Shown one piece after another: positions 24,998 to 51,661 of a stretch of 64,000 bases of DNA (positions within the stretch are counted from its first letter, which is position 1; each line of letters begins with the position of its first letter). The notes under the pieces are model-generated. The model was not told where the DNA came from. It searched no databases and saw only the letters and a list, made by a program, of their open reading frames with translations. The position numbers and the translations under genes are program-made. Origin of the DNA: Eledone cirrhosa (Eukaryota). The DNA lies in the NCBI GenBank assembly GCA_964016885.1, contig OZ024757.1:9238001-9302000 (forward strand). The letters run 5' to 3'.

Positions 24998-25137
24998 TTT
25001 AGGTATTACAGAAAAAAAAAGAAATTTTACATTTCTATCATTAAAAATGAATCTAGGAAGACAGATTGGTTGGAACAGGTGATTTCTTCCAGAGAATGAG
25101 AGAGAGGAAGTGAGAAAGAAATATAGGGAGGAAGAAC

Positions 25138-25470
25138 AGACCCCTGTGGTAGACAGGTACTTTTTTGTTATCAACCTTGAATGGATGAAAGACAAAGTTG
25201 ACCTCAGCAGGATTTAAACTCAGAGCAGAGAACCAGAACAAATATGGCAGAAAGCATTCCATCCATTGTTTTATAGACTTTAAATAAATGTTTCTACTTT
25301 TAACTCAACCCCAGTACATTACTGGTACTTTATTTTACTGAACCTCTGAGAAAGAAGAGTAAAGCTAACCTCAGCAGGATTTTAATACAGAACGTAAAGG
25401 GATGTAACTATATGACACAAAGCATATCGTCTGACACTCTACTGATTCTGCCAATCCACCACCATCACCA
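25138..25470 (-). mobile_element. Two degraded tRNA-derived SINE copies (mirror of 50748-51070)
   Basis: Reverse complement contains TGGCAGAATCAGTAGAG (A-box-like), a degenerate B box, GAGGTCAACTTTG..TTTCATCC and AAGTACCAG, as in the other SINE copies. Confidence 0.7.
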
Positions 25471-25867
25471 ATAAAATAAGATTGTGTCTCTATAAGAAAC
25501 CTTAATGACAAATATGAAGTAGAACATTCTACAGGGTGTATTTGTGGATTACAATACAAAACCTGAGAATAATTTCCAACATATTTCACCATAATAAATG
25601 TTCATTAATATATATTATTATTTCGTGGCATTCTTGAGATCATTAATCCCGACCTGAACATCCCTAGACATCTGATCTATGTAGGTCATTTTCAGTCATC
25701 TCACTAGGGTCTTACTATGTTTAGGTATCCACCACAGGAGCCAGCTTATCAGGTCATCCCTTCTTCAGTAGGAATGTCTGGCATATCTTGTCCTTCGCTC
25801 CCTAGTTATTGTAGTAATCTTCAATATATGGCAGTATACTTCTTCCATTTGATAGAGTATATATATA

Positions 25868-26372
25868 TAGATGCATATGAAGGATGACAGCTGCATTAAA
25901 AGGTGCAGAGCACTAAATGTCGCTGGAGGCCTTGGAGTGGGGAGATCCATGAAGACCCGGGATGAGGTGATAAAAGCTGACCTTGCCCAATTGCACCTCT
26001 CAAAGGCGATGACGCAGGACGGTGCCCTCTGGCATCATGCAGTAATACAGAAGACTCGACTACAAGCCGAAGCTGAAGCATATAGACAAATATGTCCCCA
26101 TCCCCACCCACTGCAAAGTGGTTGACAAAATATCACCCAGCCCACATTGTAAAGTGGCTGTGTAGGCGCCATGGTAAAAAAAGCACCTAGCACTCACAGT
26201 AAATGAGGTTTTGTGTTAGGAAGGACATCAAGCTGTAGAAATCAAGCCAAAATCAGTTCCCATATGAGCAAGACAAGGTCACCCGACCTGGCATTCCCCG
26301 CAACAGGACTACCCGTCTACCTTATGCTAGCATGGAAGAATGGAGGTAAAACGGTGATGATGATAAGTATAA
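25868..26372 (+). mobile_element. 3' fragment of an RTE-clade LINE
   Basis: Translates MHMKDDSCIKRCRAL..GVGRSMKTRDEVIKADL, homologous to the C-terminus of the RTE at 53545-53943. Ends in a (GAT)n tail at ~26355-26365. Confidence 0.8.
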
Positions 26373-26462
26373 GATAAGGATTTTTCAAGCTTCACAGTGT
26401 ATATTCTTCCTTCCAGAGTGTGTCTGTATAGTTGTGTGTTTCACATTTCACAGTGATGGGGT

Positions 26463-27308
26463 TTATTGCAAGTGTTGACTACGTAGGTGAATAACCAGTG
26501 AAGAATTCTGAGAGAAAGATTTCCCACATATTTCACACGAATAAGGTTTTTCACCAGTATGTATTCTTTTGTGTTTTACAAGATGAGAACTATTAGAAAA
26601 AGATTTCCCACATATTTCACAATGGAAGGGTTTTTCCCCAGTATGTATCCTTTTGTGAAGTTCAAGATGAGAACTACGAGAAAAAGATTTCCCACATATT
26701 TCACAATGGAAGGGTTTTTCCCCAGTATGTATCCTTTTGTGAAGTTCAAGACTAGAACCTCGAGAAAAAGATTTCCCACATATTTCACATGAATAAGGTT
26801 TTTCTCCTGTGTGTGTTGTTTTGTGATCTACAAGACTAGAACCTTGAGAAAAAGATTTCCCACATATTTCACATGAATAAGGTTTCTCTCCTGTGTGTAT
26901 TCTTTTGTGATCTACAAGATGAGGACCACGAGAAAAAGATTTCCCACATATTTCACAATGGAAGGGTTTCTCTCCTGTGTGTATTCTTTTGTGATCGCCA
27001 AGGTGGACCTTCTGAGAAAAAGATTTCCCACATATTTTACATGAATAAGGTTTTTCACCTGTGTGTATTCTTTTGTGAACTACAAGATTAGAATTACAAG
27101 AAAAGGATTTCCCACATATTTCACATGCAAAAGGTTTTTATCCAGTGTGTGTTCTTATATGCCTTTTTAAATTTCTGTTCAAGACAAAAGACTTCCCACA
27201 TATTTCACAGTGGAAGGGTTTTTCTCCAGTGTGTATTTTCCCATGTGAGGATAGTTTCAGTTTTGAAGGGAGAGTTTTCCTACAAATCTCACAGCTATAT
27301 TCAGACAT
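26463..27308 (-). pseudogene. C2H2 zinc-finger array gene ZF-A (10 fingers) with an in-frame premature stop
   Basis: Manual translation from ATG at 27308 gives [32 protein letters not shown]...HLRSQHLQ* (282 codons). The linker after finger 2 reads ACT GGA TAA AAA CCT (TG*KP, 27138-27140). Paralogue of 49080-49757. Confidence 0.9.
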
Positions 27309-49079: not shown

Positions 49080-49757
49080 ATGTCTGAATATAGCTGTGAG
49101 ATTTGTAGGAAAACTTTCTCTTCAAAATTGAAACTATCCTCACACGAGAAAATACACACTGGAGAAAAACCCTTCCATTGTGAAATATGTGGGAAATCTT
49201 TTTCTAGTAATTCTACTCTTGTAGTTCACAAAAGAATACACACTGGAGAAAAACCTTATTCATGTAAAATATGTGGGAAATCCTTTTCTAATAGTTCTCA
49301 TCTTGTAGTTCACAAAAGAATACATACTGGTGAAAAACCTTTTGCATGTGAAATATGTGGGAAATCTTTTTCTCAAGGTTCTCATCTTGAAGATCACAAA
49401 AGAATACACACAGGAGAAAAACCTTTTTCATGTGAAATATGTGGGAACTCTTTTCCTCATGTTGCTAATCTTGTAAAACACAAAAGAATACACACAGGAG
49501 AAAAACCTTATTCATGTGAAATATGTGGGAAATCTTTTTCTCGAAGTTCTAATGTTGTACATCACAAAAGAATACACACAGGAGAAAAACCCTTCCATTG
49601 TGAAATATGTGGGAAATCTTTTTCTCAGAGTTCTCATCTTGTAAAACACAAAAGAATACATACTGGTGAAAAACCTTATTCATGTGAAATATGTGGGAAA
49701 TCTTTCTCTCAGAATTCGTCACTGGTTGTTCACCTACGAAGTCAACACTTTCGGTAA
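49080..49757 (+). CDS. C2H2 zinc-finger protein ZF-B (8 tandem fingers, 225 aa, no effector domain visible)
   Basis: Intact ORF with eight C-x2-C-x12-H-x3/4-H fingers joined by TGEKP linkers. An upstream coding exon cannot be excluded. Confidence 0.9.
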
Positions 49758-49844
49758 ACCCCATCACTGTGAAATGTGAAACACACAACTATACAGACAC
49801 ACTCTGGAAGGAAGAATATACAATGTGAAGCTTGAAAAATCCTT

Positions 49845-50340
49845 ATCATCATCATTATCAACACCGTTTTACGTCCATTCTTCCATGGGTTGTCCTGTTG
49901 TGGACAATGCCAGGTCGGGTCGCCTTGTCTTGCTCATATGGGAACTGATTTTGGCTTGATTTCTACAGCTTGATGTCCTTCCTAACACAAAACCTCATTT
50001 ACTGTGAGTGCTAGGTGCTTTTTTTACCATGGTGCCTACACAGCCACTTTACTCTGGGGGCTGGGTGATATTTTGTTGACCACTTTGCAGTGGGTGGGGA
50101 TGGGGAGATATTTGTCTATATGCTTCAGCTTCGGCTTGTAGCCGTGTGAAGTCAGGTCTTCTGTATTACTGCATGATGCCAGAGGGCAGCGTCCTACGTC
50201 ATCGCTTTTGAGAGGTGCAATTGGGCAAGGTCAGCTTTTATCACCTCATCCCGGGTTTTCCTGGATCTCCCCACTCCATGGCTTCCAGCGACATTTAGTG
50301 CTCTGCACCTTTTAATGCAGCTGTCAACCTTCATATGCAT
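49845..50340 (-). mobile_element. RTE 3' fragment (mirror of 25868-26372)
   Basis: (CAT)n tail at ~49845-49860. Reverse complement of the left-arm fragment. Confidence 0.8.
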
Positions 50341-50747
50341 CTATATATATATACTCTATCAAATGGAAGAAGTATACTGCCATATATTGACGATTACTAC
50401 AATATCTAGGGAGCGAAGGACAAGATATGCCAGACATTCCTACCGAAGAATGGATGACCTGATGATCTGGCTCCTGTGGTGGATACCTAAACATAGTAAG
50501 ACCCTAGTGAGATGACTGAAAATGACCTACATAGATCAGATGTCTAGGGATGTTCAGGTAGGGATTAATGATCTCAATAATGCCACAAAATAATAATATA
50601 TATTAATGAACATTTATTATGGTGAAATATGTTGGAAATTATTCTCAGGTTTTGTATTGTAATCCACAAATACACTCTGTAGAATGTTCTACTTCATATT
50701 TGTCATTAAGGTTTCTTATAGAGACACAATCTTATTTTATTGCTGAT

Positions 50748-51070
50748 GGTGGTGGATTGGCAGAATCAGTAGAGTGTCAGACGATATGCTTTGTGTCATA
50801 TAGTTACATCCCTTTACGTTCTGTATTAAAAACCTGCTGAGGTTAGCTTTACTCTTCCTCAGGTTCAGTAAAATAAAGTACCAGTAATGCACTGGGGTTG
50901 AGTTAAAAGTAGAAACATTATTTAAAGTCTATAAAACAATGGATGGAATGCTTTCTGCCATATTTGTTCTGGTTCTCTGCTCTCTGAGTTTAAATCCTGC
51001 TGAGGTCAACTTTGCCTTTCATCCATTCAAGGTTGATAACAAAAATGTACCAGTCTACCACAGGGGTCTG
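50748..51070 (+). mobile_element. Two degraded tRNA-derived SINE copies
   Basis: GGATTGGCAGAATCAGTAGAG..AAATAAAGTACCAG..GTAGAAAC and CTGAGTTTAAATCCTGCTGAGGTCAACTTTGCCTTTCATCC. Confidence 0.7.
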
Positions 51071-51661
51071 CTCTTCCTCTCTATATTTCTTTCTCACTTC
51101 CTCTCTCTCATTCTCTCTCCTTCTCTGGAAGAAATCACCTGTCCCAACCTGGAGAGTGAAGGGCTCCACCAAGCTTCAGATGTCCACAGTGACACCCCTA
51201 TGACTCCATCAGTGCAAGAAAAACAAAACAAGATTGATGTGTTTATATGTGTTATTTTACAAACACTAACTGATTTATGTTTATATTTGTGACAAAATAT
51301 CCACATTTATGTGTAAATAAAAACAATTTTATAACTTTAATATTTATTGATGGTACTTTCATGACAGTTGAAATTATGACTTTTTTTTAGAAATAATTCA
51401 CATTTGAAAATACTTTACAACTTTCTTCTCTTGCCAAACAAGGGTTTGGTAGGACCCTTCAGTTGTGTCAAAGACATAACAACCTCTTTAGTACTGGTGC
51501 CCCAGTAGAATGTGGGACCATATGTAAGAGAGATGTGGTCTACCACTGCACCCTGGTTTGTAAAGACCTGTCCCACCCTTGCTAGCAGGGAAAGTAGACA
51601 TTAAATGATGATCTATGATGTCATTGGTGCCAAGTTGTTTCAGCTATTCCCTTGGACAACA

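Follow-up and report, generated by a model that had tools for sequence, protein, structure and literature searches.

Two inverted C2H2 zinc-finger genes of Eledone cirrhosa belong to a large family with a probable common pool of fingers

We analyzed a stretch of 64,000 nucleotides (nt) of the Eledone cirrhosa genome (contig OZ024757.1, positions 9,238,001 to 9,302,000; hereafter, the window), which contains a 25-kb satellite with an 85-bp unit, three C2H2 zinc-finger arrays, and relics of long interspersed nuclear elements (LINEs). Two of the arrays, ZF-A and ZF-B, lie in inverted arms and were the subject of an earlier prediction made from the letters of the window alone (the original prediction). 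Rather than forming a private pair, ZF-A and ZF-B belong to a C2H2 family with no fewer than 119 near-identical genes. The feature is better described as a family-wide pool of fingers than as a diverged pair, and is an octopod form of the known fast-evolving tandem-finger families. Our preferred explanation, to which we give a probability of roughly 0.6, is a finger-only family whose arrays are rebuilt by recombination between copies, with selection on the DNA-contact residues. The family would thereby work as a self-renewing library of sequence readers, with young repeats as their most probable targets. The evidence for the evolutionary mechanism is good; we infer the function and the targets.

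The start codon region was used to find the copies of the family. A 31-mer at the start codon had 119 exact matches in the genome, and its reversed control had none. One hundred of the at least 119 copies were listed; these are spread over 11 chromosome-scale contigs plus a single small one, and 39 of them are on the contig of the window (C18). The analyzed set consisted of ZF-A, ZF-B, and 98 copies outside the window, and the other 19 exact matches were left out. The 281 bases around the ZF-B start gave 40 scored places at 93–100% identity (586 candidates). The ends of the homology to the ZF-B surroundings differ from copy to copy, which points to segmental duplication; a mobile unit was rejected because no fixed unit ends are found across the copies.

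The inverted arms align as closely as had been claimed (Table 1). They are inverted copies separated by a 15-kb spacer, and their non-coding parts differ by substitutions at 3.7–5.7% of positions (98/1722 in the LINE part, 48/1253 upstream, and 51/1370 downstream), with many indels. The arrays differ by 168 bp and have 10 and 8 fingers, respectively. All 18 helix signatures (positions −1/2/3/6), re-read from the translations, agreed with those listed originally, and ZF-A and ZF-B have no signature in common among their internal fingers. The observation of the pair therefore holds, but the stop codon in ZF-A and the membership in a large family had been overlooked. Some fingers with different signatures are near-identical in DNA, as in A9 and B7 (2 nt of 63) and A3 and B2 (3 nt of 63). 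For each of the two genes, the nearest copy is usually not the partner; across flank windows of 300 bases, the partner came out as the best match in one of 14 for ZF-A and in one of 14 for ZF-B. The two were not joined in a tree built from the 5′ flank of 37 copies, where the topology is star-like and poorly resolved.

Table 1 Features of the window.
Feature	Position	Strand	Remarks
Arm A (3′ flank, ZF-A, 5′ region, LINE relic)	25068..30305	minus	Segment common to many family members
ZF-A	26463..27308	minus	846 nt with ten C2H2 fingers; finger 2 is followed by an in-frame TAA (27140-27138)
80-bp tandem repeat, a decayed zinc-finger array	30350..30821	plus	p = 0.001 vs 1000 shuffles; beside 7 other members
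ZF-C	34300..35787	minus	Sister-family member, broken by a frameshift near 35660, a TAG at 35525-35523, and additional deletions
Finger-less remnant of a third copy	40674..41546	plus	5′ block (98% to both arms) fused to a 3′ flank piece
Arm B	45508..51149	plus	Homology with other members continues past both ends
Very high-copy short interspersed repeat	47712..47900	plus	Second copy at 47116-47304
Hairpin repeat element, upstream of the candidate promoter	47934..48126		ZF-A copy at 28277-28471; high copy in the genome
Candidate promoter and putative 5′ non-coding exon	48130..48330	plus	Donor-like sites, CGGAAGT; ZF-A copy at ~28270-28070
ZF-B	49080..49757	plus	678 nt; intact 225-amino-acid open reading frame, Met and eight C2H2 fingers

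We compared individual fingers across the family. The 100 copies contain 611 fingers, of which 486 are distinct in DNA; 63 nt were compared per finger, and terminal fingers whose His spacing is longer were not included. Among the scored internal fingers, 7 of 8 in ZF-A and 5 of 6 in ZF-B had a counterpart in another copy that differed by at most 2 nt, and 9 of the 14 had an exact match. The best matches in the partner array were 2–22 nt away. Matching fingers occurred in collinear order. Fingers 4–8 of ZF-B differed by 1, 1, 0, 0, and 2 nt from fingers 3, 4, 7, 8, and 9 of the copy at C18:6625456, which also has the closest proximal 3′ flank (99% identical over the first 300 nt). ZF-A tracked a copy on another chromosome-scale contig, C27:15628617, over most of the array length; its fingers 4, 5, 6, 8, 9, and 10 differed by 2, 1, 0, 0, 1, and 3 nt from fingers 4, 5, 9, 12, 14, and 15 of that copy. 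The copy at C18:8528080 tracked fingers 2–5 of ZF-A, with fingers 2, 3, and 5 exact. Because 12 of the 14 scored internal fingers have such near matches in other copies, arranged in collinear blocks, it is well supported that the code of ZF-A and ZF-B was mostly re-dealt from a common finger pool, and probably not rewritten by point change since a split.

Exchange also appears to reach below the level of the finger. Within a finger, sites farther apart were less strongly associated (rho −0.31, permutation p 2e-4), and the left and right halves of the helix were found in many combinations. Copies have whole and half fingers in common, and the minisatellite-like turnover originally proposed is supported. 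The likely processes would be unequal crossover inside an array and conversion from copy to copy.

To compare contact residues with the rest of the finger, the six internal finger pairs of ZF-A and ZF-B were placed in their best collinear alignment. Contact codons differed at 22 of 72 nt (31%), other helix codons at 8 of 54, the scaffold at 24 of 378 (6%), and the flanks at 99 of 2623 (4%). The difference between contact codons and scaffold, and that between contact codons and flanks, gave Fisher p values of 6e-8 and 9e-14. Divergence at the contact sites is thus higher than that of the flanks, the comparison on which the original prediction had proposed to stand or fall.

The ratio between nonsynonymous and synonymous change (dN/dS) was then calculated along a spanning tree that linked 398 distinct internal fingers. 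Helix positions −1, 3, and 6 had the most amino-acid change, and position 2 was mostly Ser. Measured against all synonymous sites, dN/dS at −1/3/6 was 1.70 (bootstrap 1.44–1.97) and ranged from 1.44 to 1.80 over five edge cut-offs. The scaffold value was 0.43 (p 5e-22), excluding the Cys and His that the finger pattern demands, and that of finger 1 was 0.35. Diversification is concentrated at the DNA-contact codons, as had been expected. Synonymous change at the contact codons was not elevated (0.068 vs 0.068). In 18 simulations with neutral helix/contact codons, duplication, and conversion, the mean dN/dS was 0.73–0.78 and the maximum was 1.35. Contact sites accounted for 0.41 (ZF-A) and 0.44 (ZF-B) of the amino-acid diversity, vs 0.14 if uniform. 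A sister family represented by ZF-C showed the same pattern (2.09 at contact codons vs 0.53 in the scaffold). These values make a fair but not final case for diversifying selection on the contact residues.

ZF-B is a tandem C2H2 protein of the Kruppel type, with eight zf-C2H2 stretches in Pfam, CxxC-x12-HxxxH fingers, and TGEKP linkers. Its start lies three residues before the spacer of finger 1, and the Pfam scan detected only fingers, with no effector domain or leader. In the 85 upstream open reading frames (ORFs) of at least 42 amino acids (aa), the same scan detected LINE domains and weak sub-threshold matches only. KRAB was found in neither ZF-B nor these ORFs. PR/SET, SSXRD, and KRAB were likewise not found upstream of the arrays, SSXRD being covered only through the Pfam scan of the upstream ORFs. 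ZF-B has no N-terminal region that could correspond to the 28-aa acidic domain of FiNZ proteins, as judged without a FiNZ profile. The absence of a visible effector domain was thus confirmed.

The stop codon of ZF-A lies in the linker after finger 2 and leaves an ORF of 56 aa. None of the other copies among the 100 examined has a stop at this position. All aligned public contigs and 9 of 9 reads have a sense codon at this site, but these mix sequence from numerous paralogues and from other individuals, so that a private mutation and an assembly error are inseparable here. ZF-A is truncated in the present assembly and is likely a pseudogene or null allele. Elsewhere in the family, several copies (L042, L051, L061, L063, L069, and L126) have in common a premature stop at one linker, which removes a conserved terminal run of fingers that is in frame in other copies.

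ZF-C sits between the arms. In the sister family to which it belongs, which has at least 150 copies (150 scored matches, 402 candidates), a 48-aa leader is in frame with the array; it was in frame with finger 1 in 42 of the 49 copies examined. The leader occupies 35787-35647 (minus strand) in the window, and sister genes are also found at C27:0.3-4.4 Mb and elsewhere. The leader with the first finger matches Octopus bimaculoides proteins (pairwise E 8e-7), to which the leader is about 40% identical, and two of the four profile-search matches that were looked up named this species. The sister family thus has the homologues of an octopod-specific C2H2 expansion. These octopus matches concern the sister family, and the leaderless clade of ZF-A and ZF-B was not found in another species. 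In the leaderless clade, the leader region is non-coding and the ATG stands at the Ile46 of the sister family. The dN/dS of the leader was 0.65 overall, 1.02 for aa 2–24, and 0.43 for aa 25–48, in a sample picked by protein similarity. Its second half resembles a decayed finger. Searches against Pfam and the Atlas and a word-indexed search matched no known family. Since the leader is weakly constrained and matched no known family, we do not call it an effector domain; it is a weakly constrained candidate for an octopod finger-associated motif.

Upstream of the ZF-B array, positions 48230-48380 were 99.6–99.7% identical among about 25 close copies, vs 82–98% in other upstream windows. This near-invariance suggests a working promoter or first exon. 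The CGGAAGT of the candidate promoter is a motif that we take to be ETS-like. Several short ATG frames lie upstream of the start codon. The contigs aligned to the 5′ region gave no usable splice joints. The hairpin element beside the candidate promoter is long, with three alternating arms, is present in high copy in public contigs, and is possibly a miniature inverted-repeat transposable element-like sequence. It was rejected as a known RNA, as all 39 Rfam matches were below the gathering score. The short interspersed repeat had a contig depth of 10^5–10^7, vs about 10^4 over the gene, and is presumably a short interspersed nuclear element-like sequence.

From these results, we propose the following mechanism. 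Copies would spread by segmental duplication. Unequal crossover would move fingers inside an array, and non-allelic conversion would carry them from one array to another; finger 1 and the last finger, being the ends of the array, would be shielded. Many copies would die in a birth-and-death process. Selection would likely favor new DNA-contact residues. Transcription would start from the conserved upstream block and translation from the ATG at the position of Ile46 in the sister family. The protein would act on repeats by occupancy or through partners, as it has no known effector domain.

Several points weigh against this explanation. A stop-free ORF with at least five fingers was present in only 44 of the 100 copies, 39 had two fingers or fewer, and in 34 the ORF stopped short of the last detected finger. 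The sample is skewed toward copies with the exact 31-mer. A longer ancestral array with different deletions, instead of exchange, may explain part of the common blocks. The dN/dS interval at the narrowest edge cut-off includes 1, and the selection result depends on the yardstick, because the ratio to the synonymous sites of the same three codons was 1.23 (p 0.21) at the widest cut-off. The spanning tree was used on recombining sequences, and the null consists of 18 runs of a rough model. In a crude, low-power target scan, a 12-position pattern, derived from a recognition code, scored no better than shuffles against seven local repeats. Finally, the available part of a 2025 cephalopod study reports that expanded C2H2 genes are mainly neural in expression (PMC12513265).

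This nervous-system expression favors an alternative in which the same generator serves another purpose, the proteins being neural or developmental transcription factors rather than repeat readers. The scan without a match to local repeats and the lack of a repressor domain agree with it. We consider it unlikely, although less so than the other alternatives. The high death rate and the dN/dS above 1 at contact codons would fit a moving target better than regulatory sites that stay stable.

A second alternative is that the copies are mostly neutral debris, in which a duplication-prone segment carries a finger minisatellite whose turnover involves no selection for specificity. None of ZF-A, ZF-C, the 80-bp relic, and the finger-less remnant is intact, two or fewer in-frame fingers remain in 39 of the 100 copies, and short ATG frames precede the start. 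However, the scaffold and finger 1 have low dN/dS, synonymous change at the contact codons is not raised, the neutral simulations fell below the observed value, and the upstream block is unusually conserved. We regard this alternative as improbable.

Taken literally, the original prediction would mean that a local inverted duplication made ZF-A and ZF-B and that point substitutions then rewrote the code. The similar extent of the inverted arms and the partner being the best match in one upstream window are in line with this model, which is nevertheless largely refuted and very improbable. The partner rarely ranks first in the flanks, the flank tree does not group the two genes, and the fingers pre-exist in other copies, mostly ready-made. 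The upstream breakpoint of ZF-A and the 80-bp relic are common to seven other copies and not to ZF-B. Divergent neighbors make up 6 of the 42 close pairs.

Truncated PRDM9 derivatives acting in the placement of recombination hotspots are a still more remote candidate. The contact-site diversity of 0.41 and 0.44 does reach the low end of the PRDM9 range of 0.33–1.0 (PMC5519329, from its available part). However, PR/SET had 14 matches in the genome, none of them on C18. At C22:11,548,128-11,551,355 (L180), a PR/SET exon precedes a homogeneous finger array; this PRDM9-like locus is presumably PRDM9. Five fingers of this locus differ at 23–29 of 78 nt from the closest finger of the family and have a different scaffold, and descent of the family from a PRDM9 array was rejected on this distance. 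That the gene rides on a mobile element, or that the inversion is an assembly artefact, is scarcely credible: copies do occur on many chromosomes and a hairpin element lies upstream, but there are no fixed unit ends, the arms are 4–6% apart with many indels, and closer relatives are found elsewhere.

The window also contains other remnants and repeats. The 80-bp minisatellite is a zinc-finger array that has lost its reading frame but has gone on amplifying. The 85-bp satellite occupies 1-24997 of the window within a run of about 71 kb (C18 about 9,192,000-9,262,997). Short arrays akin to it lie directly downstream of ZF-C, at 33702-34300, and many leader-type genes have them as well, so that the satellite may represent a 3′ element of this gene family that became amplified. 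An origin of this satellite from fingers was not significant (p 0.08–0.98). A strongly GC-skewed 20-bp satellite of about 24 kb extends from 60171-64000 of the window to about C18:9,322,600. The LINE relics at 51973-53940 and 43181-46354 encode a reverse transcriptase followed by a PHD-like finger, and the same two Pfam domains are common in related proteins.

The family bears on how invertebrates without KRAB/TRIM28 use huge tandem-finger repertoires. It offers a defined young set of genes with intact members such as ZF-B, a measured selection signal at contact residues, and natural finger-swap variants. Specificity can change by re-dealing fingers between genes, and a pairwise dN/dS between such 'paralogues' would misread the re-dealing as extreme selection on point mutations. 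A bolder extension, which we hold to be rather doubtful, is that octopods have a genome-wide PRDM9-style generator, with more than 100 finger-only genes on many chromosomes that take whole and half fingers from a single recombining pool under diversifying selection, tracking young repeats without KRAB. The leader of the larger sister family would be an undescribed octopod counterpart of KRAB or FiNZ, and the leaderless clade would be competitors or partners of the leader-bearing one.

OZF is a finger-only protein. ZNF146/OZF binds LINE-1 (PMC8896011); predicted octopus ZNF motifs are enriched in transposable element (TE) libraries (PMC10547256). These and the following comparisons are based on the available parts of the cited papers. 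Octopus C2H2 expansion, insect finger-only expansions, and selection on contact residues are already in print. Our literature search, covering few subscription papers and no supplements and with the 2015 octopus genome paper outside it, found no description of finger exchange between octopus paralogues or of the 48-aa leader. The available part of a bioRxiv manuscript (10.64898/2026.09.07.749791) makes no mention of molluscs. The C2H2 expansions of cephalopods and octopus are likewise clustered, lineage-specific, tandem C2H2 genes, but the available parts of these papers, unlike the present analysis, give no finger-level account (PMC12513265; PMC9068888). In the former, nothing was found on N-terminal regions, effectors, pseudogenes, or positive selection, and the targets of recent C2H2 duplicates are named as a next step.

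The hemipteran ZF271-like/APEZ genes are also finger-only, with no KRAB or other domain, and show tandem clusters, pseudogenes, and high turnover (PMC6444547). Our family has the features of this type (array only, clusters, and pseudogenes), a functional likeness and not orthology. The insect genes differ in being an independent lineage with variable exon structure and expression support, and exchange of identical fingers between genes at the DNA level is not described in the available part of that paper (PMC6444547).

The young murine KRAB-ZFP clusters and the cyprinid FiNZ-ZNFs resemble the family in segmental duplication, common fingerprints, and truncated arrays, as well as in positive selection on base-contacting residues and a link to TEs (PMC12575710; PMC10547256). 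They have KRAB or FiNZ on a separate exon, whereas ZF-A and ZF-B have none. The sister-family leader is also unlike a KRAB/FiNZ exon, as it is in the same frame as the array and weakly constrained.

The family shares with PRDM9 homogenized 84-bp units, diversity at contact residues, and a fixed atypical first finger (PMC5519329). The contact-site part of diversity in complete PRDM9 arrays is 0.33–1.0 in the rows of Table 1 of that paper, and the values of ZF-A and ZF-B are below the human value of 0.687. In contrast to PRDM9, the family has no KRAB, SSXRD, or PR/SET, and its fingers are pooled across more than 100 genes rather than among the alleles of one (PMC5519329). The family is like a PRDM9 array in its turnover, but it is not PRDM9.

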